Source: a virus
Length of the DNA: 64,000 bases
Virus record (IMG/VR): IMGVR_UViG_3300008267_000003
Span: 32,001 to 96,000 of that record
Reading direction: 5' to 3' (one strand)
Both the position numbers and the translations under genes were made by a program. Below the pieces are notes generated by a model, which saw only the letters and a program-made list of their open reading frames with translations, was not told the origin of the DNA and did not search any database. How positions within the stretch are numbered: the first letter of the stretch is position 1; each line of letters starts with the position of its first letter. Of the stretch, positions 53,940-63,526 are shown one piece after another.

Positions 53940-54254
53940 ATGGTAACAAAATCTAAAGTGGATCCGGACACAGGTTATACCCCGGAGCAGCAACTGGAGG
54001 CTTTCAACAATGTATTCTCAAAAAAGCCCAAGCGCAAACTGGCTCGCAATCCGGATCCAGTAGCGACAGAGAAGCCACAGACAAAGTCCGTGGATCTGAA
54101 GACTCAGGCAGTAAACCTGTACGGTCAAGGTCTGAGCGCAAAGGACGTAGCAAAGACTCTTAGCATCACGTATGCTAACGCTTACTACTACAAGCGCTTT
54201 GTTGGTGCAGATGTAGCTAAGGCTCGTCTGGATCAAGCACTGGCTCGAGTATAA
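53940..54254 (+). CDS. Helix-turn-helix DNA-binding protein
   Basis: 'AVNLYGQGLSAKDVAKTLSITYANAYYY'; AGGAG RBS. Confidence 0.65.
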   Translation: MVTKSKVDPDTGYTPEQQLEAFNNVFSKKPKRKLARNPDPVATEKPQTKSVDLKTQAVNLYGQGLSAKDVAKTLSITYANAYYYKRFVGADVAKARLDQALARV

Positions 54255-54284
54255 GTATTAAAGTGGGGTGCGACACTTCAACGC

Positions 54285-54380
54285 ACCATATTGAAGCACA
54301 CTGATCCTCAAGGGCACGAGAGGTGGTGTAACCCTAATGCCGGGTGAAGGTTCGAATCCAGCAGTGTGTTTCAATATGGT
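54285..54380 (+). ncRNA. Long-stem structured RNA element H1 with internal T-loop arm
   Basis: 19-bp closing stem 54285-54303/54362-54380 (one G.U); interior hairpins plus GGTTCGAATCC. Confidence 0.55.
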
Positions 54381-54443
54381 AACCCAACTAACTGTGATAC
54401 CAGTACGACATGCTGGGTAGCGGTTATCATAACCAGAATAGTA

Positions 54444-54571
54444 AAACAGAAACATTCTCTGTGATGTGTGCCTTGCTAGGAAACACAGGTACTTACCCTG
54501 TGTGATAGAATTAGCATTGAGGAGTCACGAAAGTTGAGATAGCGTGAGGGAGACTCAGCATGTTTCTGTTT
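54444..54571 (+). ncRNA. Long-stem structured element H5
   Basis: 15-bp closing stem 54444-54458/54557-54571 with one mismatch; internal hairpins. Confidence 0.4.
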
Positions 54572-54603
54572 GGCAAGATTTTGAAATAAAACAGAAATGT
54601 GCG

Positions 54604-54968
54604 TTCTGTCTCTGCAGAGAGTTCAGCAAGGGTTTGATGCGGTAATGACTTCGACATCATGTAACAGTCAGTTCCTTGTTAGCATTAATATTAATTTAGA
54701 GTAACTGAGGCGCTTCACCTCAGGGCGACCAGTGTGAGCCTGCTTTAAGTAGGACAGCTCGCAGAATCAAAGAAGCAAGAATCCGGTTACTACTTCCCTG
54801 AAAGTAGCGTTTGATTAGCGATAGAGATCCGGTGGCAGAAAACCGTTAGCGAGGCAACCCCTCAGACTCTGATAGGCAGTATCCCTCTGCACACAGACAA
54901 CAGAATAAAAGGGATGGACAGGGTAACAACTCGAGGGAGGGGCTAGCGTGGAAAACAGTAGCCTCCCA
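54604..54968 (+). ncRNA. Unknown ~360-nt structured RNA, copy A
   Basis: No ORF; shares ordered motifs and covarying helices with 60514-60880. Confidence 0.6.
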
Positions 54969-54976
54969 CTAATTCA

Positions 54977-55053
54977 GGGCCGGAAGCTCATTTGGTATGA
55001 GCAATCGACTCATAATCGATCGGCATTGGGTTCGAATCCCAAACGGCCCACCA
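54977..55053 (+). tRNA. tRNA-CAT (probably Ile2; Met possible)
   Basis: Cloverleaf, ctCATaa loop, CCA. C4:G69/C5:G68 pairs as in TilS substrates. Confidence 0.85.
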
Positions 55054-55067
55054 CTATTGGAGATAAT

Positions 55068-55499
55068 ATGAAATCTTGGACATTACCTGTTAAAGAAACT
55101 GAGAACGGTGAACTTTACATTGAACTTAACGATGAAATACTTGAAGGTAGTGGATTCAAGATTGGTGACACATTACAATGGAAAGATCTTAAAGATGGAT
55201 CGTACAGCTTAACTAAAGCTGAGGGTGACCTATATGTTGTTGAAGGTATCAGCATGTTCCATATCAAATTTGTAGTTCGTGCAAAGCAAGCGGAACATGC
55301 ATGTGATGAAGTTGTTATGGATAATGGTTCATTGAAAGAGCTTAGCCAGAAACATATAGACTTTAACATTCTTGGAGCTCGAAAAATCTCTCAGGATGAG
55401 TACCTTAGAATGTTCGACGAGGATAATGACTATCTTCGTAGCTGGACAGATGAACAGAAGTTAGATCTGATTAACGAGATTGATTATGAAAGTGATTGA
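55068..55499 (+). CDS. Protein with N-terminal AbrB/MazE-like domain
   Basis: GGAG RBS, start 55068; 'GELYIELNDEILEGSGFKIGDTLQW'. Confidence 0.6.
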   Translation: MKSWTLPVKETENGELYIELNDEILEGSGFKIGDTLQWKDLKDGSYSLTKAEGDLYVVEGISMFHIKFVVRAKQAEHACDEVVMDNGSLKELSQKHIDFNILGARKISQDEYLRMFDEDNDYLRSWTDEQKLDLINEIDYESD

Positions 55500-55644
55500 A
55501 CGTTGGTACGAGAAGCTGCTAGGATATGACTGGCACTACAGACTCCGTAAACAATTTACGTTTACAGAGTGGATAATTGTGTTTGTTGTGGGCTTCTTTG
55601 CCATATACTTTTTCCTTGATTGGATGATTTACGGAGATCTATAA
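55486..55644 (+). CDS. 52-aa membrane protein
   Basis: MKVIERWYEK...WIIVFVVGFFAIYFFLDW; stop overlaps the next start (TAATG). Confidence 0.55.
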   Translation: MKVIERWYEKLLGYDWHYRLRKQFTFTEWIIVFVVGFFAIYFFLDWMIYGDL

Positions 55645-56309
55645 TGCGTGTATACATTGGACCATACAAGAATTGGGTCGGTCCTTTCCAGATTGCAAGA
55701 ACTATTTTGTTCTGGATGGACAGGGAAGACGATCGTGTGTACAAGTTTGGTGAGTGGCTTGCTGGTAAGGACGATTATTCTTTGTTGATGAGGGCTTGTC
55801 TTTGGGTTGAGAAGTTTAGAAAGCAAAAGATAAGCGTCAGAATTGACAATTATGATACATGGTCAATGGACCATACACTTGCTCATATCATCTTACCGAT
55901 GTTAAAACAGCTCAAGGAAACTAAGCATGGAGCTCCTAACGTTGATGATGATGATGTCCCTGAAGAACTGAAAAGCTCTTCGGCTCCACCTAGGGAAGAT
56001 GAGTGGGATATCGATGGTAACCATTTCAAGCGGTGGGATTGGGTACTTGATGAAATGATATTTGCCTTCGAGTGCAAACTTAATGATAGCTGGGACGATG
56101 AGTTCTGGACTGGTGAATGGGGCAAGTCTGAATTTGTAGAAACTGATGAAGAGCATCTTAATTCGTTGACAAATAAAATGGAAAAGTTGTATACTATGGT
56201 TAATTCAGGTAACCGTACCTGTGATTGGGAAGCGCGTCAGAAAGTTCAGAACCGTATAACCAATGGGTTCAAACTGTTTGGCAAATATTATGAAAATCTT
56301 TGGGATTGA
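55644..56309 (+). CDS. Conserved phage hypothetical protein
   Basis: 'YDTWSMDHTLA.IILPML', 'WDWVLDEMIFAF', 'GFKLFGKYYENLWD'. Confidence 0.75.
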   Translation: MRVYIGPYKNWVGPFQIARTILFWMDREDDRVYKFGEWLAGKDDYSLLMRACLWVEKFRKQKISVRIDNYDTWSMDHTLAHIILPMLKQLKETKHGAPNVDDDDVPEELKSSSAPPREDEWDIDGNHFKRWDWVLDEMIFAFECKLNDSWDDEFWTGEWGKSEFVETDEEHLNSLTNKMEKLYTMVNSGNRTCDWEARQKVQNRITNGFKLFGKYYENLWD

Positions 56310-56310
56310 T

Positions 56311-56841
56311 ATGAACAAATTTTATATTATGATGTTGGTAGTGGCTCTTGGTGCTTGTTCTAGTAATAAGATGACCAAAGTTCCAGAATCAACTGGTCTT
56401 GTTCCAGACTGGTTTGCATCCGAGCCTCAGAAAGACAGTACTGATGTTGTTGTTACTGCAACTGATATATCTAAGGACATGCAGTTTGCAATTGATAAAG
56501 CAATGTTAAATGCACGAGTAGAACTGGCTAACCGTATCAGTACTAAGGTAGAATCAATAGTTCGAGAATCTGTTATAGAAGATAGTTCATCCAAGGTTAA
56601 GGATGTAGAACGTGAGGTTGATCGAGTATCTAAACAAGTTACGGAACAGGTGCTATCAATGTATACACGTGAAAAACTTGTTGTGGTTAAAGAAGGTGGC
56701 GGTTATAGAGCTTATGTAATGCTCAAGCTATCTGAAGATCAAGGTCGTAAGCTGTTCAACAACGCTCGCAAAAGTTCTAAGAATAGAGAGGCTGCTTTTA
56801 GAGAACTTGATTCTGAAATTGAAAGATCAAGAAAAAACTAA
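56311..56841 (+). CDS. Lipoprotein (LPP20-like)
   Basis: Lipobox 'LGAC' after the signal peptide; 'VPDWF'. Confidence 0.7.
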   Translation: MNKFYIMMLVVALGACSSNKMTKVPESTGLVPDWFASEPQKDSTDVVVTATDISKDMQFAIDKAMLNARVELANRISTKVESIVRESVIEDSSSKVKDVEREVDRVSKQVTEQVLSMYTREKLVVVKEGGGYRAYVMLKLSEDQGRKLFNNARKSSKNREAAFRELDSEIERSRKN

Positions 56842-56869
56842 AATATTTTTAGTAAAAGTTTGATTTACG

Positions 56870-56898
56870 TTGACATTTTTTATATATAGTAGTACGAT
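56870..56898 (+). promoter_or_regulatory. sigma70 promoter of the tRNA array leader
   Basis: TTGACA-17 nt-TACGAT. Confidence 0.75.
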
Positions 56899-56926
56899 TA
56901 CTTTTTTTTGCAGGACCATTGGAATA

Positions 56927-57016
56927 ATGATACAGATACATACAACCCCCCAGATTTCCATTAATGGCTTTACGAAGCCAGGATATCGCGCCGACTCATG
57001 GAGCGAGATATCATAG
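56927..57016 (+). CDS. Putative 29-aa leader peptide MIQIHTTPQISINGFTKPGYRADSWSEIS
   Basis: AGGA/GGA upstream; stop codon abuts the antiterminator/terminator hairpins. Confidence 0.6.
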   Translation: MIQIHTTPQISINGFTKPGYRADSWSEIS

Positions 57017-57048
57017 GGTCATAGTATACTCCGTATATTCCAAGACCC
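57016..57048 (+). promoter_or_regulatory. Putative antiterminator hairpin
   Basis: GGGTC..AGTATAC-TCC-GTATATT..GACCC; its 3' strand overlaps the terminator 5' arm. Confidence 0.55.
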
Positions 57049-57074
57049 GAGCAAAACGACTCGGGTTTTTTTTT
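57045..57074 (+). terminator. Intrinsic terminator (attenuator)
   Basis: ACCCGAG-CAAAACGA-CTCGGGT followed by 8 more T. Confidence 0.85.
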
Positions 57075-57075
57075 A

Positions 57076-57087
57076 GCTCTCTAACAA
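57076..57087 (+). promoter_or_regulatory. boxA-like antitermination site
   Basis: GCTCTCTAACAA, one mismatch to rrn boxA GCTCTTTAACA, just before the first tRNA. Confidence 0.6.
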
Positions 57088-57099
57088 TTAGGATCCATT

Positions 57100-57189
57100 G
57101 GAAGCTTGGCTGAGTGGTTTAAGGCAGCGGTCTTGAAAACCGTCGATCGTTTGCGCGGTCCGTGAGTTCGAATCTCACAGCTTCCACCA
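57100..57189 (+). tRNA. tRNA-Ser(TGA)
   Basis: Cloverleaf, long V-arm, CCA. Confidence 0.93.
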
Positions 57190-57260
57190 TATAAAAGTAC
57201 ACTAACCACTACAGTAGGGATCCTGGTGGGGCTGCTACACCCTAGTGTACTTTTATATGG
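57187..57260 (+). ncRNA. Long-stem element H2 between two tRNA-Ser genes
   Basis: Perfect 18-bp inverted repeat 57187-57204/57243-57260. Confidence 0.55.
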
Positions 57261-57348
57261 AGAATTGGCTGAGAGGCTTAAGGCAGCGGTTTGCTAAACC
57301 GTCGATTCAGTAATGGGTCCACTGGTTCGAATCCAGTATTCTCCACCA
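57259..57348 (+). tRNA. tRNA-Ser(GCT)
   Basis: Cloverleaf, long V-arm, CCA. Confidence 0.93.
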
Positions 57349-57363
57349 ACTAAGGAGGAAGAA

Positions 57364-57960
57364 ATGGCAAATATATTTTTAGTTAGCGATACCCATTTTG
57401 GTCATGCTGGTGTTTGTCGTTTCCTTAGAGACGATGGAACCAAGCTTCGGCCATGGGATGATCCAAATGATATGGATGAAGCTATGATTGAAAAATGGAA
57501 CTCTGTTGTCAAACCAAGAGACAAGGTGTATCATCTTGGAGATGTAGTAATAAATCGGAAAGCATTAAAGATACTAGGATTGCTTAATGGTGATAAGGTT
57601 TTAATCAAAGGTAATCACGATATCTTTAAGCTAGAGGATTATACACCTTACTTCAGAGATATTCGTGGTTATCATGTAATGAGTGGAATGATATTAAGTC
57701 ATATTCCAGTTCATGAAAGTAACCTTTATAGATTTGGAACAAATATTCACGGTCATACTCATAGTAACCGAGTAATGAAAACAGTTACTGTGCAAGAGTC
57801 TAGTCCGTATGATCCAAGACCGTATGATGTTAAAAAGCAAGTTATCGATCCTCGATACCACTGTGTATGTGTTGAACAAACTGACTTTGCACCAATCTCT
57901 TTTGAGGATGTAAAGTTACGAATCAAGGCAGAAGGTGGTGACATATCATTTAAAAGTTAA
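57364..57960 (+). CDS. Calcineurin-like metallophosphoesterase
   Basis: AAGGAGG RBS; 'SDTHFGH', 'HLGD', 'GNHD', 'HGHTH'. Confidence 0.88.
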   Translation: MANIFLVSDTHFGHAGVCRFLRDDGTKLRPWDDPNDMDEAMIEKWNSVVKPRDKVYHLGDVVINRKALKILGLLNGDKVLIKGNHDIFKLEDYTPYFRDIRGYHVMSGMILSHIPVHESNLYRFGTNIHGHTHSNRVMKTVTVQESSPYDPRPYDVKKQVIDPRYHCVCVEQTDFAPISFEDVKLRIKAEGGDISFKS

Positions 57961-57961
57961 T

Positions 57962-58039
57962 GCAACGGTGGCAGAGAGGCCCAATGCAAGAGTCTGCAAA
58001 ACTCTAAAACCGTCAGTTCGAATCTGACCCGTTGCTCCA
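57962..58039 (+). tRNA. tRNA-Cys(GCA)
   Basis: ctGCAaa loop, U73, CCA. Confidence 0.92.
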
Positions 58040-58048
58040 GGAGGCTAT

Positions 58049-58294
58049 ATGAGTGGTAAAGGAAGTAAACCAAGACCTTATAGTGTTGATCAGAAAACGT
58101 TTGATTCTAATTGGAATAGTATATTCAATAAGAAGAAAAAGACTGATCAAGAAAAGTTTGATGAAGCAATAATGAAGAATGAATATTATGATAAGCTAAC
58201 CACAGAAGAAGCTTTAACTGAAATGGTTAGGATTAGTGAAGAGATGGGTGCTTATGTTGATGAGCCTATTGAGAACCCATTGATTAAAAAATAA
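58049..58294 (+). CDS. Hypothetical protein ('GKGSKPRP' family)
   Basis: GGAGG RBS. Confidence 0.65.
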   Translation: MSGKGSKPRPYSVDQKTFDSNWNSIFNKKKKTDQEKFDEAIMKNEYYDKLTTEEALTEMVRISEEMGAYVDEPIENPLIKK

Positions 58295-58295
58295 T

Positions 58296-58369
58296 CTCGG
58301 TGTGATGTAATGGTAGCATAGCGATCTCCAAAATCGTTTGTTGCGGTTCGAGTCCGTACACCGAGGCCA
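58296..58369 (+). tRNA. tRNA-Trp(CCA)
   Basis: ctCCAaa loop, G73, CCA. Confidence 0.9.
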
Positions 58370-58377
58370 GAAACAAC

Positions 58378-58472
58378 GGTAGGTAGCACTGGTGTGCGGC
58401 TAGGTCTTATAAGCCTGGGAGAGCGGTCAGATGGGCTGCAACGGAAGAGTTCGAATCTCTTACCTACTACCA
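58378..58472 (+). tRNA. Non-canonical tRNA with TAT anticodon and long variable arm
   Basis: 95 nt; short 4-bp/4-nt D arm, 6-bp anticodon stem, ctTATaa loop, T arm, CCA. Confidence 0.75.
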
Positions 58473-58474
58473 AC

Positions 58475-58549
58475 GCGGATATAATTCAGTGGTAGAATGT
58501 TTGCTTGCCAAGCAAAATGTCGTCGGTTCGAACCCGACTATCCGCTCCA
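58475..58549 (+). tRNA. tRNA-Gly(GCC)
   Basis: ttGCCaa loop, U73, CCA. Confidence 0.93.
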
Positions 58550-58675
58550 CTAACAAGGAGAACCAAAATGGGGCTGTTGCAGTAATCTTTTTAGTTGTTG
58601 TATTGTTATATTTTATTGATAAAAATTCTTAGAAAGGAGTCCTGTTATGGACAGTGACAAGAGTGATAAGATGAT

Positions 58676-58752
58676 GGGTGCGTAACTCAACTGGTTAGAG
58701 TAATCGGCTTTTAACCGATAAGTTGTGAGTTCGAGTCTCACCGCACCTACCA
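58676..58752 (+). tRNA. tRNA-Lys(TTT)
   Basis: ctTTTaa loop, CCA. Confidence 0.93.
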
Positions 58753-58836
58753 TATACAAACACATTCAAACACATAATGACGCCCGGGGTTATGGATTAC
58801 TGTTACGAGGATCCAAGAGTGTGTTTCTATATGGTA
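58748..58836 (+). ncRNA. Long-stem element H3
   Basis: 20-bp stem 58748-58767/58817-58836 (one C.C, one U.G) enclosing two hairpins. Confidence 0.55.
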
Positions 58837-58841
58837 TCTAT

Positions 58842-58915
58842 TGGGGTATAGTGAAATGGTATAACAACTGGTTTTGAGCCAGTCGTCCTTGGTTCGATTC
58901 CAAGTGCCCCTGCCA
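58842..58915 (+). tRNA. tRNA-Gln(TTG)
   Basis: ttTTGag loop, 1:72 mismatch, G73, CCA. Confidence 0.9.
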
Positions 58916-58921
58916 AGTATT

Positions 58922-58996
58922 CGGTCTTTAGTAAAATGGAGATTACGCAACGCTACGGACGTTGAGGTGTGGGTTCGATTCCTGCAAGACCGGCCA
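58922..58996 (+). tRNA. tRNA-Arg(ACG)
   Basis: ctACGga loop, CCA. Confidence 0.9.
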
Positions 58997-58998
58997 AT

Positions 58999-59074
58999 GG
59001 TGTCTTTAGTGTAGTGGCCTGCATTCGAGTCTGTGAAACTCGAGGTACGAGATCGATACTCGTAAGACACCCCA
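58999..59074 (+). tRNA. tRNA-His(GTG)
   Basis: G-1:C73, ctGTGaa loop, CCA. Confidence 0.9.
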
Positions 59075-59076
59075 AT

Positions 59077-59152
59077 GCTGCTTTAGCTGATGTGGTCATA
59101 GCAGGTCCCTGAAGAGGACATGAACTAGGTTCGATTCCTAGAGGCAGCACCA
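59077..59152 (+). tRNA. tRNA-Phe(GAA)
   Basis: ctGAAga loop, CCA. Confidence 0.9.
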
Positions 59153-59162
59153 AAGTTTGAAT

Positions 59163-59247
59163 GGGAGTGCGGCGCAGTTAGAGAGGCGCGGCTGACTGTA
59201 AATCAGTTCTTTCGGGTGAGTAGGTGCGAATCCTTCCACTCCCACCA
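59163..59247 (+). tRNA. tRNA-Tyr(GTA)
   Basis: ctGTAaa loop, V-arm, CCA. Confidence 0.9.
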
Positions 59248-59251
59248 ATTT

Positions 59252-59326
59252 ACCTTCGTAGCTCAGTGGTAGAGCATTCGCTTGATAAGCGAAGGGTCAG
59301 TGGATCGTTCCCACTCGAAGGTACCA
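59252..59326 (+). tRNA. tRNA-Ile(GAT)
   Basis: ttGATaa loop, CCA. Confidence 0.9.
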
Positions 59327-59335
59327 AAGGATATT

Positions 59336-59824
59336 ATGAAAAAATTACTTTTTATTTTAATGTTGTTACCATCCATTGCAAGTGCTTGTGACAGTTACGT
59401 TATTGGATTCAAAGGCATTAACAATGTATTTGATGATAACGCTTTTAGACAGTATGCAATGAAGTATAAAGCATGTTCATTAGCTTACAGTTGGAATCAA
59501 GTGCATACAGCTGTTAAATTTATTAACAGTACTAAGAAGAAGTATCAGCTGTATGGATTCAGTAAGGGCGCAGAAAGTATAGGACAGGTTTTAAAACAAG
59601 TTAAACGCAAACCATACCACGTAGTAACAATTGGTGCTTACCATACTGCGAATGTTAACTATAGAGTGTACGGTGTGTCAACGCAGAACTATTTTGACGG
59701 CTCGGGAAGTAGGAACAGGTCCCCGGGCACTCATATAAGAGGAGTAGATCACGAAGACATGCAAAGACACGTTAATAGTTACTATTTTGGTATCAAACAA
59801 TGCCAGCGGAGAAAGGGCTGTTGA
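59336..59824 (+). CDS. Secreted small alpha/beta-hydrolase-like protein
   Basis: AAGGA RBS, signal peptide MKKLLFILMLLPSIASA, 'YGFSKGA' GxSxG motif. Confidence 0.6.
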   Translation: MKKLLFILMLLPSIASACDSYVIGFKGINNVFDDNAFRQYAMKYKACSLAYSWNQVHTAVKFINSTKKKYQLYGFSKGAESIGQVLKQVKRKPYHVVTIGAYHTANVNYRVYGVSTQNYFDGSGSRNRSPGTHIRGVDHEDMQRHVNSYYFGIKQCQRRKGC

Positions 59825-59849
59825 CTTATTTTTGTGCTTGAGAGATAAT
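59821..59849 (+). promoter_or_regulatory. sigma70-type promoter
   Basis: TTGACT-17 nt-GATAAT. Confidence 0.7.
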
Positions 59850-59880
59850 ACATTTGTAACCATTGATAAAGGATAACATT

Positions 59881-60303
59881 ATGAAATTAGCTGCCGGTAA
59901 GTATGTGATTGCAGACCCCTGCTACATCCTCAATGAGGAAGTGTACTTCAGACTGCTGAAAGAAACCAACTACTTCATGTACGAAGCTGTTGAACGTGGT
60001 GGTGTAATGTCAGACAGTGAGACGGGAAAGTTCTTTGCTGTATTCAGTACCAAGTATGGTGATGGCACATACAGGGATGGTAAGGGATTCAAGTATGGTG
60101 TAGATGCAGGTTGCATTGCATGTATCCCTGCTGAGATGTGTGATCTGAAAGAAGACCGTGAGTACATCAACGAAGTAACTTTTGCTAGAGACTTCGAGGT
60201 ACGGTACGAGGATGGTTTGATTATATTTGGAGATGTAATTATTAATACTGATCCAGATGATTTTTATGATGATGAGGAAGAAAGCTACGAAGATGTAGCG
60301 TAA
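59881..60303 (+). CDS. Conserved phage hypothetical protein
   Basis: AAGGA RBS; 'YVIADPCY', 'TKYGDGTY', 'VDAGCI'. Confidence 0.7.
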   Translation: MKLAAGKYVIADPCYILNEEVYFRLLKETNYFMYEAVERGGVMSDSETGKFFAVFSTKYGDGTYRDGKGFKYGVDAGCIACIPAEMCDLKEDREYINEVTFARDFEVRYEDGLIIFGDVIINTDPDDFYDDEEESYEDVA

Positions 60304-60312
60304 GGTTTTAGT

Positions 60313-60387
60313 GCACCGTTCGTCTATCGGTTAGGACATTGCCCTTTCACGGCAGTAAGAGGAGTTCGATTCTCCTACGGTGTACCA
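60313..60387 (+). tRNA. tRNA-Glu(TTC)
   Basis: ctTTCac loop, CCA. Confidence 0.92.
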
Positions 60388-60506
60388 TTTGATATGCTGG
60401 TTGTAAGCCATGGGCCGCAAGCCTGAGTAACTATCACAATATCTGGTTATCTCGAGTAACTCCAGTGAGTCGATAGCAAATAGTGCAGCCAGCATTTCAA
60501 ATGGTA
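60383..60506 (+). ncRNA. Long-stem element H4
   Basis: 23-bp stem 60383-60405/60484-60506 (two U.G, one U.U) enclosing a branched interior. Confidence 0.55.
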
Positions 60507-60513
60507 ACATAAA

Positions 60514-60880
60514 GGTTTGGCAGGAGCAGAGTCCAGTGGGAAGGACGACTAGGGGCCTGTAAAAACAAAGTAGTGAAACAATGGTATATCAACCATCAAA
60601 GTAGCGAACAGCCCTTATAGTAAACGGAGTAGCGGGAGAGAGTGATGTCTCAATGTGTCTACACCGGCCAAAAGAATCCCGTAGTCCCGTCTACGTTATT
60701 AACGGGGGTGTATTGGCACTAACCAGAACGCCAGGGTGCATACGATCACGGACCTCAAAACTCACTGACATGAGTGATAGAAACATCGTAGGTGGGTATC
60801 ACACCTTGTTTAACCAAAAGTAAATGTGATGGACAGAGTAACTGCTCAGGAGGGGGCTTATGGGAATGAGTAGCCTTCCA
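60514..60880 (+). ncRNA. Unknown ~365-nt structured RNA, copy B
   Basis: Paralogue of 54604-54968; no ORF. Confidence 0.6.
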
Positions 60881-60887
60881 AGATTAT

Positions 60888-60964
60888 TGACCAGTAGCAC
60901 AGTTGGTAGTTGCATCTGACTGTTAATCAGAATGTCGGTGGTTCGAGCCCACCCTGGTCAGCCA
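60888..60964 (+). tRNA. tRNA-Asn(GTT)
   Basis: ctGTTaa loop, G73, CCA. Confidence 0.93.
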
Positions 60965-60980
60965 AATTAGAAAGGGTAGT

Positions 60981-61220
60981 ATGTGGGAAGTAATATTTAC
61001 GTTCTTAGCGTTATTCTTTACAGATATATTTTACACATACTATCTAAGATCAATACAGAATGAGCAGCCACTTGCATCTAGTATATGGGCTGTGATTGTA
61101 TTTGCTGTTGCCAGTGTAGCAGTAATCAACTATACTACTAATCACTGGCTTCTCATTCCTGCATGCCTAGGTGCTTTCTGTGGCACTTACGTAGGTATGA
61201 TTCTGAGGAGAAAGAAATAA
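60981..61220 (+). CDS. Small multi-pass membrane protein
   Basis: Three hydrophobic segments, basic C-terminus. Confidence 0.65.
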   Translation: MWEVIFTFLALFFTDIFYTYYLRSIQNEQPLASSIWAVIVFAVASVAVINYTTNHWLLIPACLGAFCGTYVGMILRRKK

Positions 61221-61295
61221 GGTTCCAAAGTGTTCATGGACGCACACGACACTGTCACTGTCGAAGAAGGGGATCGTTACCCCTTGGGACCGCCA
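61221..61295 (+). tRNA. tRNA-Asp(GTC)
   Basis: ctGTCac loop, G73, CCA. Confidence 0.88.
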
Positions 61296-61331
61296 TCATA
61301 TATACATTATTGTTAACTTCCAAAGGTAATA

Positions 61332-62120
61332 ATGAAAGCACTAATACTTTCCTTTGCGTTGCTGTTCAGTACCAACGTCCTGTCAGCAACCCAGTACGTA
61401 TATAACTATTCAAAAAATGAAATTGTGATAGATGAAGGTTCAGATAAGGTAAGACCCATTGCAAGTGTTACAAAGTTGATGACTGCTATTGTAATCCTTG
61501 AAAGTGAAGTTAGCCTAGATGAAAAAGTTCCTTATAAAGGATTCAAGAACATTCCATCCAAGCAAAGAACAAGAGACGAGTTGTTAGCTCTCCTGCTGAT
61601 TAAGAGTGACAACAACGCTGCAGAAGCTCTTGCAAGAAGTTTTCCAGGTGGTAGAGATCATTTTATTGATATGATGAATGTAACATCCAAGTTCCTGGGC
61701 ATGGAGTATACTACGTATGATGATCCTTCTGGTCTTAGTCCTAGAAATCAAAGTACTGCAAAAGATCTTACAAAGCTGTTGCATTATGCTTCGACCTACC
61801 CTAAAATCAAACAGATTGCTTCTATGACTAGCTTCATGTTGGTAGAACCTTCTGTAAAGAAGGCAACAGCAAAGAAGAAGAAAAAGAAAGCAAGAACATT
61901 CAGTAGTTATAGAGTGATTACAGTAAACAATACTAACTTTCATCTACTGAATGAATACGAAGAGATTGAGATCTCCAAGACTGGATACACCAATCCAGCT
62001 GGTAAGTGCTTAACAATGTTTGTTACTAAGAATGGTGAGCATTTTGCAGTTGTTATTCTTGGTGAGCGTAATATGAGAGATGTAGAAAAAGTATCAAGAA
62101 AGATTTTAGATAATCTGTAG
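61332..62120 (+). CDS. D-alanyl-D-alanine carboxypeptidase/endopeptidase (peptidase S11, PBP7-like)
   Basis: Signal peptide; SxxK 'ASVTKL', 'SDN', 'KTG'. Confidence 0.88.
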   Translation: MKALILSFALLFSTNVLSATQYVYNYSKNEIVIDEGSDKVRPIASVTKLMTAIVILESEVSLDEKVPYKGFKNIPSKQRTRDELLALLLIKSDNNAAEALARSFPGGRDHFIDMMNVTSKFLGMEYTTYDDPSGLSPRNQSTAKDLTKLLHYASTYPKIKQIASMTSFMLVEPSVKKATAKKKKKKARTFSSYRVITVNNTNFHLLNEYEEIEISKTGYTNPAGKCLTMFVTKNGEHFAVVILGERNMRDVEKVSRKILDNL

Positions 62121-62193
62121 CCCTTTTAGTTAAATGGTATAACACTTGATTTGTAATCATGGATTGGCAGTTCGATTCTGTCAAGGGGCACCA
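62120..62193 (+). tRNA. tRNA-Thr(TGT)
   Basis: ttTGTaa loop, CCA. Confidence 0.9.
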
Positions 62194-62194
62194 T

Positions 62195-62271
62195 CTGAGT
62201 GTAGTTCAGCCTGGTAGAATGCCTGCTTTGGGAGCAGGAGGTCGGGAGTTCGATCCTCTCCACTCAGACCA
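62195..62271 (+). tRNA. tRNA-Pro(TGG)
   Basis: ttTGGga loop, CCA. Confidence 0.93.
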
Positions 62272-62280
62272 ATTATAGGA

Positions 62281-62649
62281 ATGGTTATGACTAAATTATT
62301 TGGTAAAGTTGATAAGGGTTGGGGCCATGAACTTATATGGGCATCGACCGATCAGTATTGCTGCAAGTTTTTAAACTTTGATAGACCAGCAGCAAAGACA
62401 TCAATGCATTATCATGAACATAAAGATGAACAGTGGTATGTTCAGAGTGGTAGGTTTCAGGTCGACTGGATTAATCTAGAAGATGGTTCGACAAAGTTTT
62501 GTAATCTTGAGGTAGGAGATACATGGCATAATTATGCTGGTACACCTCATAGGTTAGTTTGTATTGAACCTGGAACAGTAGTCGAAGTGAGCACTGCTGA
62601 TAGTGTTGAGGACAACTACAGGATTATTCCTGGCGATAGCCAGAAATAA
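62281..62649 (+). CDS. Cupin (mannose-6-phosphate isomerase-like) protein
   Basis: 'KGWGHELIW', 'SMHYHEHKDE', 'PHRL', 'EVST..DNYRI.PGDSQ'. Confidence 0.8.
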   Translation: MVMTKLFGKVDKGWGHELIWASTDQYCCKFLNFDRPAAKTSMHYHEHKDEQWYVQSGRFQVDWINLEDGSTKFCNLEVGDTWHNYAGTPHRLVCIEPGTVVEVSTADSVEDNYRIIPGDSQK

Positions 62650-62658
62650 TAAACAAAT

Positions 62659-62740
62659 GCGCATGTGGTGAAATGGTAGACACGCTAGTCTTAGGAACTA
62701 GTCTTTCGGGGTGGGGGTTCGAGTCCCTCCATGCGCACCA
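62659..62740 (+). tRNA. tRNA-Leu(TAG)
   Basis: ctTAGga loop, V-arm, CCA. Confidence 0.93.
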
Positions 62741-62790
62741 CACACTCGCGTTTGTTGACCGCGTATAATAGGATAAGTTGTCAACATCTA

Positions 62791-62864
62791 GCCTCGTTAG
62801 TTTAATGGTAGAACTCCATCCTTACACGGTGGTTACGGTGGTTCGATTCCATCACGAGGCACCA
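62791..62864 (+). tRNA. tRNA-Val(TAC)
   Basis: ctTACac loop, CCA. Confidence 0.9.
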
Positions 62865-62871
62865 AATTAAA

Positions 62872-62957
62872 GCCCGGGTGGTGGAATGGTAGACACAGCA
62901 GACTTAAAATCTGCCGCTTGAAAGGGCGTACCGGTTCGAGTCCGGTTCTGGGTACCA
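62872..62957 (+). tRNA. tRNA-Leu(TAA)
   Basis: ctTAAaa loop, V-arm, CCA. Confidence 0.92.
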
Positions 62958-62969
62958 ATAGGAGATGAT

Positions 62970-63170
62970 ATGAGTATAGTGCTTCGAAGAGATCAGATAG
63001 AAAAACTAATTGACATTTATAATCACTTTCATGAGATACAATCGTTTACTATCTCTCTGGATGATAATTCTGATATGATATCAATCAACTTCGATATTAA
63101 CGATGTTAAAGCAGATTACAAACCAAGTGAAAAGTTTGATAAACCCTTCAAGCCTATGGTGTTTAAATGA
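62970..63170 (+). CDS. Hypothetical protein
   Basis: AGGAG RBS. Confidence 0.6.
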   Translation: MSIVLRRDQIEKLIDIYNHFHEIQSFTISLDDNSDMISINFDINDVKADYKPSEKFDKPFKPMVFK

Positions 63171-63367
63171 AAATAGAACTCAGTGATGATACAGTCAATC
63201 GTCTCATATGGGATGTTCTATATGAAGACCTCAAAATTTTTAGAGTAGACTTGAATCGACTGGATAGTATGTCTATACTCAATGAAGCAGATCGTAGAGA
63301 TTACAAAGACTACCTAAGATATATCAACGCTCTTGAAACTCTTTTAGAGTATTATAGCGTTAAATAA
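63167..63367 (+). CDS. Hypothetical protein
   Basis: ATGA overlap with the upstream gene. Confidence 0.6.
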   Translation: MKIELSDDTVNRLIWDVLYEDLKIFRVDLNRLDSMSILNEADRRDYKDYLRYINALETLLEYYSVK

Positions 63368-63371
63368 ACAC

Positions 63372-63446
63372 CTGGCGTTCGTTCAACGGATAGGACAGGA
63401 GTCTTCTAAACTCTTAATGGGGGTTCGATTCCCTCACGCCGGACCA
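63372..63446 (+). tRNA. tRNA-Arg(TCT)
   Basis: ctTCTaa loop, CCA. Confidence 0.92.
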
Positions 63447-63452
63447 ATCAAT

Positions 63453-63526
63453 GCGGGATTAGTTTAATGGTAAAACAGCAGATTTCCAATCTTCGGTTAT
63501 CAGTTCGATTCTGATATCCCGCTCCA
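63453..63526 (+). tRNA. tRNA-Gly(TCC)
   Basis: ttTCCaa loop, U73, CCA. Confidence 0.9.

Follow-up and report, generated by a model that had tools for sequence, protein, structure and literature searches.

A 64,000-nucleotide (nt) stretch of a viral genome in IMG/VR (record IMGVR_UViG_3300008267_000003; hereafter, the window) carries an array of 24 transfer RNA (tRNA) genes, and two stretches lying in front of tRNA genes of this array were analyzed as copies, A and B, of a structured non-coding RNA. The viral genome is 162 kb long with direct terminal repeats, and the window comprises its bases 32001–96000. The genome encodes T4-type proteins (terminase, tail sheath, portal, and a gp46-like protein), the portal sharing 56% identity with its counterpart in Stenotrophomonas phage DLP6 and ~53% with the portals of cyanomyoviruses, and from these sequences the phage is classed as T4-like. 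The DNA runs containing the stretch came mainly from lakes and other fresh water. The gene-free gaps around the two stretches (54255–54976 and 60388–60887) are longer than the stretches themselves, each of which stops just before a tRNA gene, as had been predicted, with a gap of 6–8 nt (from ~54970 to tRNA-Met at 54977 for copy A, and from ~60880 to tRNA-Asn at 60888 for copy B). We conclude that the two stretches are real, diverged copies of one structured non-coding RNA superfamily, each ~190–215 nt long. An earlier reading of the sequence (hereafter, the original prediction) had described them as two paralogous, structured RNAs of ~360 nt; the paralogy and the structure hold, and the size, the boundaries, and the shared 5' motifs do not.

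The extent of the conserved unit was defined with a covariance model (R1) built from 57 non-redundant sequences of the type represented by copy A (type A). R1 spans the whole core of copy A, and its match to copy B (type B) is restricted to 60796–60877, giving a conserved unit of ~200 nt in place of the predicted 360 nt. In an alignment of 88 unique relatives, conservation sets in only ~135–150 nt 5' of the motif GATGGACAGRGTAACNNCTC, usually directly after the upstream tRNA. The start of copy B is placed near 60668 because in its type B relatives the RNA begins directly after a tRNA, 149 nt ahead of the motif. The 3' motifs that the two copies were predicted to share are borne out by GGACAGRGTAAC, found 2 times against 0.02 expected.

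Neither stretch codes for protein. The claim that they are free of open reading frames (ORFs) is correct in this sense, as the frames are broken across relatives: an ORF of 56 amino acids (aa) in copy B (60653–60823) is interrupted by stops or frameshifts in 8 of 8 relatives, and in the type A core no frame is open throughout in more than 2 of the 57 sequences (0 on the strand of the RNA). Length differences in the variable hairpin are not multiples of 3.

Types A and B share one order of elements (Table 1). A 5' hairpin, with a loop (containing CGUUA) paired to the 5' flank, is followed by two hairpins, by a hairpin of variable length, and then by an H-type pseudoknot, an A-rich linker, the strand GGACAGRGUAAC, and a 3' hairpin that has a conserved internal loop (G/AG) and is capped by a UGGAA-like loop. 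In type B the second of the two hairpin loops pairs with a strand ~40 nt downstream, with one compensatory change; an equivalent pairing is probable in type A and in locus L042. Support extends to two pseudoknots in each type and to one more in type B.

The type A structure was built by hand (45 pairs in 11 helices; alignment A3), and 49 pairs were scored in the nine sequences of type B (alignment A4). In type A, 95.7% of the cells are paired, as opposed to 35–42% when the partners were slid by 1–3 columns, and 18 pairs changed on both sides, in 209 cells. In type B, 96.4% of the cells are paired and 15 pairs show compensatory change. None of 500 shuffles reached the observed pairing, double-change, or covariation scores, in type A or in type B, which upholds the predicted structured, covarying, and pseudoknotted RNA family kept in two diverged copies. 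The pairs with the highest mutual information in type A are those of its helices. Two further pairs emerge from the same analysis: an A.A/U.U pair that closes the GCAG/CUGC stem, and an R/N pair within the mini hairpin of the near-invariant strand. The register of this mini hairpin is fixed by near-variant motifs, with an A–U pair replaced by G–C in two subtypes, and its closing pair occurs as A.G, G.A, A–U, G–C, U–A, and C–G. The 3' module, compared across subtypes A–E, scores 0.53 for covariation, and shuffles score 0.14. Two helices of the original prediction are real, namely ATCCCT/AGGGAT in copy A (ATCACA/TGTGAT in copy B), which covaries family-wide, and the terminal hairpin, which covaries across five subtypes.

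In the 5' pseudoknot of type A (PK1), pair 16–30 is CG in 37 sequences, GC in 8, UG in 2, and AU in 1, and is never unpaired. The segment that holds hairpin H4 ranges from 19 to 46 nt across the family. For hairpin H2, both a stem S1a (UCUG/CAGA) and a pairing of the loop (CAGA/UCUG) are nearly invariant; type B and locus L042 favor the latter, from which the type A loop probably pairs with 54868–54871. Two further pairings were considered for type A and rejected for want of covariation, i.e., 5' GUUAC with 3' GUAAC (the L141 group alters the 3' loop and retains 5' GUUAC) and 5' AUCCC as an alternative partner of GGGAU. In the 5' hairpin and pseudoknot of type B every cell is paired, as seen at pairs 22–37 and 23–36. 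Pair 71–88, in the hairpin region 60713–60789, is CG in five sequences and UA in four, with two rows shifted by one column in the alignment of this region. The pseudoknot of copy B (60790–60830) is aligned by R1 to model positions 104–140.

Table 1 Features of the two RNA cores and of their surroundings, in window positions.
Feature	Position	Strand	Evidence or remark
Copy A core (type A), ~195 nt	54776–54970	+	R1 match, 198.6 bits, E 5e-72, model positions 1–194; row 1 of alignment A3
A: 5' hairpin H1	54790–54796 / 54801–54807, within 54785–54807	+	Pairs 22–39 and 24–37 with 10 and 21 compensatory cells
A: pseudoknot PK1	H1 loop CC 54797–54798 with 5' GG 54785–54786	+	Compensatory counts and mutual-information rank
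A: hairpin H3	54813–54816 / 54826–54829	+	Pair 48–60: UA 39, AU 7, CG 6
A: hairpin H2, loop GGCAGAAA	54830–54833 / 54842–54845	+	Invariant
A: variable hairpin H4	54851–54863	+	Compensatory change in 3 of 4 pairs
A: H-type pseudoknot stem S1b, GCAG/CTGC	54876–54879 / 54887–54890	+	A.A/U.U covariation, columns 138–145, closes S1b
A: H-type pseudoknot stem S2, ATCCC/GGGAT	54881–54885 / 54911–54915	+	Pairs 142–173 and 143–172 with 24 and 12 compensatory cells
A: near-invariant strand GGACAGGGTAACAACTC	54916–54932	+	Mini hairpin of 3 base pairs, 54920–54922 / 54929–54931, loop GUAACA
A: 3' hairpin H7	54935–54967	+	Conserved internal loop (G / AG), UGGAA loop; 9 of 11 pairs compensatory across subtypes
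Copy B core (type B), ~213 nt	60668–60882	+	Row 1 of alignment A4; R1 matches its 3' 82 nt, 42.1 bits
B: 5' hairpin	60680–60684 / 60691–60695	+	For hairpin and pseudoknot together, pair 22–37: UA 6, AU 2, GC 1; pair 23–36: UA 8, AU 1
B: 5' pseudoknot, hairpin loop 60686–60690 with 60702–60706	60680–60706	+	As for the 5' hairpin
B: hairpin	60713–60717 / 60730–60734	+	Alignment A4 counts
B: hairpin	60735–60737 / 60752–60754	+	Alignment A4 counts
B: hairpin	60761–60763 / 60772–60774	+	Alignment A4 counts
B: long-range loop pairing ACGAU / AUCGU	60742–60746 / 60785–60789	+	Pair 79–126, AU to UA in L078
B: pseudoknot stem S1b, AGG/CCT	60790–60792 / 60804–60806	+	Same position as type A S1b
B: pseudoknot stem S2, ATCACA/TGTGAT	60798–60803 / 60825–60830	+	Same position as type A S2
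B: strand GGACAGAGTAACTGCTC	60831–60847	+	R1 match, alignment A4, cross-subtype comparison
B: 3' hairpin	60849–60879	+	R1 match, alignment A4, cross-subtype comparison
Array of 24 tRNA genes	54977–63526	+	ARAGORN
tRNA-Met (CAT), 6 nt 3' of copy A	54977–55053	+	ARAGORN / Rfam search
tRNA-Asn (GTT), 7 nt 3' of copy B	60888–60964	+	ARAGORN / Rfam search
Originally predicted 5' half of A, outside the core	54604–54775	+	Contains a separate module, 54618–54695
Originally predicted 5' half of B, outside the core	60514–60667	+	No relative among fetched loci; in other type B cores the start directly follows a tRNA

The RNA was detected on at least 151 IMG/VR contigs, in subtypes A to E. A scan of IMG/VR with the motif GATGGACAGRGTAACNNCTC gave at least 118 contigs, every one with the same hairpin downstream and compensating changes in it; another 29 contigs came from a scan for an independent motif (the H2 hairpin), and 4 more from a type B motif scan. 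The genome of the window holds exactly two copies, one of type A and one of type B. R1 gave 115 matches over 100 loci, and in ~20 loci the first copy is accompanied by a divergent one (of subtypes B to E, or A-like but divergent), so that an A-like copy accompanied by a second type is a recurring pattern in these phages. Among prokaryotes (one genome per species; 185,579 species, 596 Gb) the motif was found 6 times, against ~34 estimated by chance, and by R1 score the sole true member among these six is on a 3-kb contig (L125) in a cyanobacterial metagenome-assembled genome. With both gaps and a typical member as queries, blastn returned no real match among 50,697 phage records, and R1 had none in the complete T4 genome or in those of Stenotrophomonas phage DLP6 and Synechococcus phage S-CREM1. 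The superfamily belongs specifically to T4-like phages of fresh water that have not been cultured.

The RNA is always encoded on the tRNA strand and mostly lies flush between tRNAs within tRNA gene arrays. The upstream tRNA ends 130–149 nt before the motif in most loci, and an adjacent downstream tRNA starts 61–65 nt after it. A tRNA follows within a few bases in 73 of 108 unique cores (Asp, n = 55; Tyr, n = 10; Met, Cys, and Gly, n = 2 each; Asn and Ala, n = 1 each). In the other 35, small modules of other kinds or ORFs follow instead. Two contigs, L050 and L061 (5 and 11 kb), have no called tRNA. At L071, the core is preceded by a terminator-like hairpin and a promoter-like site (TTGCTG-17-TATACT), and at L061, L048, and L114 the core has a TTGATT-17-TATAAT site on one side and a small membrane-protein ORF on the other. 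Cores without an adjoining tRNA speak for an autonomous module rather than a mere tRNA leader, and the common occurrence of two diverged subtypes per contig was likewise counted for autonomy. In the array of the window, a scan for promoters and terminators found no site adjoining either core. In the sub-lineage of L061, L048, and L114 the core is located not in a tRNA array but upstream of a conserved ORF for a small hydrophobic protein of ~55 aa.

The explanation that we regard as probable, taken as a whole, is that each stretch holds one gene of this superfamily whose pseudoknotted product is co-transcribed, excised, and active as a free, stable RNA. The RNA would be transcribed together with the tRNA array and released at its 3' side by a cut of host RNase P a few bases after the 3' hairpin, and at its 5' side by 3'-end maturation of the upstream tRNA. 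Once excised, it would act alone, and its invariant junction strand and loops may form a site that binds a partner (a protein, a tRNA, or a small molecule) or catalyzes a reaction. An autonomous stable RNA released by tRNA processing is our best guess.

Several observations weigh against this explanation. No RNA run was listed as containing 54200–61000. The minimum-free-energy folds of the two copies are no more stable than those of shuffled sequences (z scores of 0.76 and −1.07); unremarkable folding energy is common for pseudoknotted RNAs, and the case thus rests on covariation. The sequences were collected by motif scans, so the invariance of the motif is partly circular; a check with the independent H2 hairpin motif found the exact 3' motif in 90 of 118 relatives and near variants in the rest. 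The promoter-like site at L071 matches only 3 of 6 positions in the first hexamer, and the consensus scan listed neither this site nor the terminator-like hairpin. Finally, 66 of the 73 adjacent downstream tRNAs (90%) are Asp, Tyr, or Asn, which could mean a role in cis.

Such a role would make the RNA a leader for the following tRNA, one that guides or speeds its 5' processing, protects the precursor against nucleases, or holds the anticodon loop, with no free life. In its favor, the spacer to the next tRNA is a constant 5–9 nt, often YCUAAUUU; the downstream tRNAs show the bias just given; and, as read from the sequence, ACAG of the invariant strand is complementary to C32–U35 (CUGU) of Asp, Tyr, and Asn tRNAs. 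A complementarity of 4 nt is within chance, however, and copy A precedes tRNA-Met, which has no CUGU. In the tree of cores the Tyr and Asp labels are intermixed; the tRNA bias may nevertheless be synteny because the Tyr and Asp slots are neighbors, flanking tRNA-Tyr in the same arrays. A leader would need a far simpler fold, and about one third of the cores have no adjacent downstream tRNA, some being on contigs with no tRNA nearby, where the core stands before an ORF or another module. We consider a leader function unlikely.

A self-cleaving or otherwise catalytic RNA, for instance one that trims the 3' end of the upstream tRNA as has been proposed for theta ribozymes, appears more doubtful still. 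The core starts 0–8 nt after an encoded CCA in most loci, its several pseudoknots and near-invariant unpaired nucleotides resemble those of ribozymes, and there is a precedent for ribozymes beside phage tRNAs (PMC10879173). Against these stand the lack of an Rfam match to hepatitis delta virus (HDV)-like, hammerhead, twister, hatchet, pistol, glmS, RNase P, or group I RNAs, the lack of conservation in the junction sequence just 5' of the core, and the copies located behind other modules or promoter-like sites, which have no tRNA to trim.

The single ~360-nt RNA of the original prediction, whose 5' end would pair with the pseudoknot loop and with GGAC, is barely credible: both copies do have ~160 nt of ORF-free sequence upstream of the core, but these parts are unrelated (best E 0.55 between the supposedly paralogous 5' halves), the 9-mer AGAGTYCAG that they share is explicable by chance (3 occurrences in the window, 1.18 expected; 9 of 100 shuffles reach this count), most relatives begin right after a tRNA without such a segment, and the upstream module of copy A sits 3' of the core elsewhere. 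Of the two long-range pairings proposed for it, the loop pairing to the far 5' end involves a segment that most members lack, the loop CTGC pairing instead with a GCAG close by on its 5' side, and the closing helix GTYC/GGAC is likewise not supported.

Parts of the upstream sequence form separate modules. The ~80-nt module at 54618–54695 is 82–92% identical to segments 3' of the core in eight loci (L001, L002, L006, L031, L077, L098, L113, and L122), and at L002 the corresponding segment reaches the start of tRNA-Glu. Further upstream, at 54286–54378, a long stem CCATATTGAAGCACACTG ... CAGTGTGTTTCAATATGG encloses a ~55-nt interior with a tRNA-like T arm (GGTTCGAATCC). Stems of this design around other interiors also precede the cores in L009, L026, L032, L065, L078, L083, and L110. 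This architecture is reminiscent of Y RNA/YrlA, yet there was no YrlA match in Rfam, and no Ro60/TROVE protein, a potential partner of such long-stem elements, was found in the phage. At 54446–54580, ~110 nt of structured sequence are enclosed by another long stem, AAAACAGAAACAT ... ATGTTTCTGTTT; just upstream of it, the sole blastn match of 54386–54431 among the fetched loci is 46 nt in L078 at 78% identity. Before copy B, a module directly after tRNA-Glu (60388–60505) has the closing stem GATATGCTGG ... CCAGCATTTC and the motifs TTGTAAGCC and GAGTAAC, with relatives at 69–73% identity in L042, L071, L103, and L121. The following 160 nt (60505–60667) contain no ORF and three AGTAGYG repeats, and none of the fetched loci holds a relative. 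Two helices of the core contain AGUAGC as well, and T4 rnaC (L131) has it twice, which may be chance.

Elsewhere in the array, two ARAGORN calls, a 95-nt tRNA-Ile (TAT) at 58378–58472 and a tRNA-Asp (GTC) at 61221–61295, were not listed by the Rfam tRNA model at its gathering score. The latter is overlapped by an ORF at 61163–61405 and abuts another at 60981–61220. The array also encloses a D-Ala-D-Ala carboxypeptidase gene (61332–62120; Peptidase_S11, E 1e-36), and a cupin-domain ORF lies at 62281–62649. A Pfam search of ten array ORFs detected no RNA-related domain.

As for what a free RNA might do, one long shot is that it is directed at tRNAs. The strand GGACAG... could dock on the C32-U33-G34-U35 anticodon loops of queuosine-family tRNAs (Asp, Tyr, Asn, and His), shielding them from host anticodon nucleases or controlling their modification; or the RNA could be a new class of ribozyme acting on tRNA precursors; and the subtype pairs could serve different tRNA clients. 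The Asp/Tyr/Asn bias provides one concrete, testable idea about the role.

Stable RNAs of unknown role in phage tRNA arrays, such as T4 rnaC and rnaD, have been recognized for decades. The present analysis adds a widespread and well-defined family of ribozyme-grade complexity. It has two to three pseudoknots and a near-invariant junction, comes in at least five subtypes, often two per genome, is abundant in lake viromes, has no Rfam entry, and occurs in none of the cultured phages searched. It would be well suited to structure determination and to tests of whether the host tRNA-processing machinery serves phages in making functional RNAs.

Comparison with known RNAs began from Rfam 15, which at gathering thresholds reported tRNAs only. 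Under lenient settings nothing overlapped the core at E values up to 10 for both copies, the check proposed with the original prediction, or up to 5 for eight relatives. The families considered were RNase P, transfer-messenger RNA (tmRNA), group I/II introns, GOLLD, ROOL, manA, HDV-like ribozymes, and YrlA, none of which matched, and the original prediction was right to set the RNA apart from the first of these through ROOL. For tmRNA, which requires a tRNA-like domain and a tag reading frame, ARAGORN listed 24 tRNAs and no tmRNA. A riboswitch, for example for preQ1, was considered because neighboring tRNAs accept queuosine; no preQ1 or other riboswitch model matched either copy or any of the eight relatives, and the 3' hairpin, viewed as a riboswitch expression platform, has conserved internal and end loops, and its stem is not directly followed by a U-tract. 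The family was not found described in the literature searched.

GOLLD (RF01998) and ROOL (RF03087) are orphan, elaborately folded RNAs often located in phages or prophages beside tRNA genes, and GOLLD was reportedly first seen in lake metagenomes. They are ~800 and ~580 nt long, respectively, compared with ~200 nt here, and neither matched in Rfam at E values of 5 to 10; the proposed likeness to such large ornate RNAs overstated the size (~200 nt, not 360 nt). Theta ribozymes are minimal HDV-like ribozymes, much smaller than the RNA described here. The present RNA orders its helices differently from the nested double pseudoknot of HDV, and no HDV-family model in Rfam matched. Like the present RNA, the HDV-like theta ribozymes of gut phages are structured RNAs directly beside phage tRNA genes (PMC10879173).

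Like T4 rnaC and rnaD, the RNA lies in the tRNA cluster of a T4-type phage, on the tRNA strand and a few nt from tRNA ends; the T4 RNAs lie 1–6 nt from their neighbors. They are shorter (139 and 119 nt, respectively, compared with ~200 nt), rnaC ends in a tRNA-like T arm that the family RNA lacks, and with filters off the best R1 score in the T4 cluster was 4.7 bits, and not on rnaC or rnaD. We know of no function for these two stable, non-tRNA RNAs. The RNA of the window is apparently an undescribed superfamily of a known kind, the orphan structured RNAs of phage tRNA arrays.

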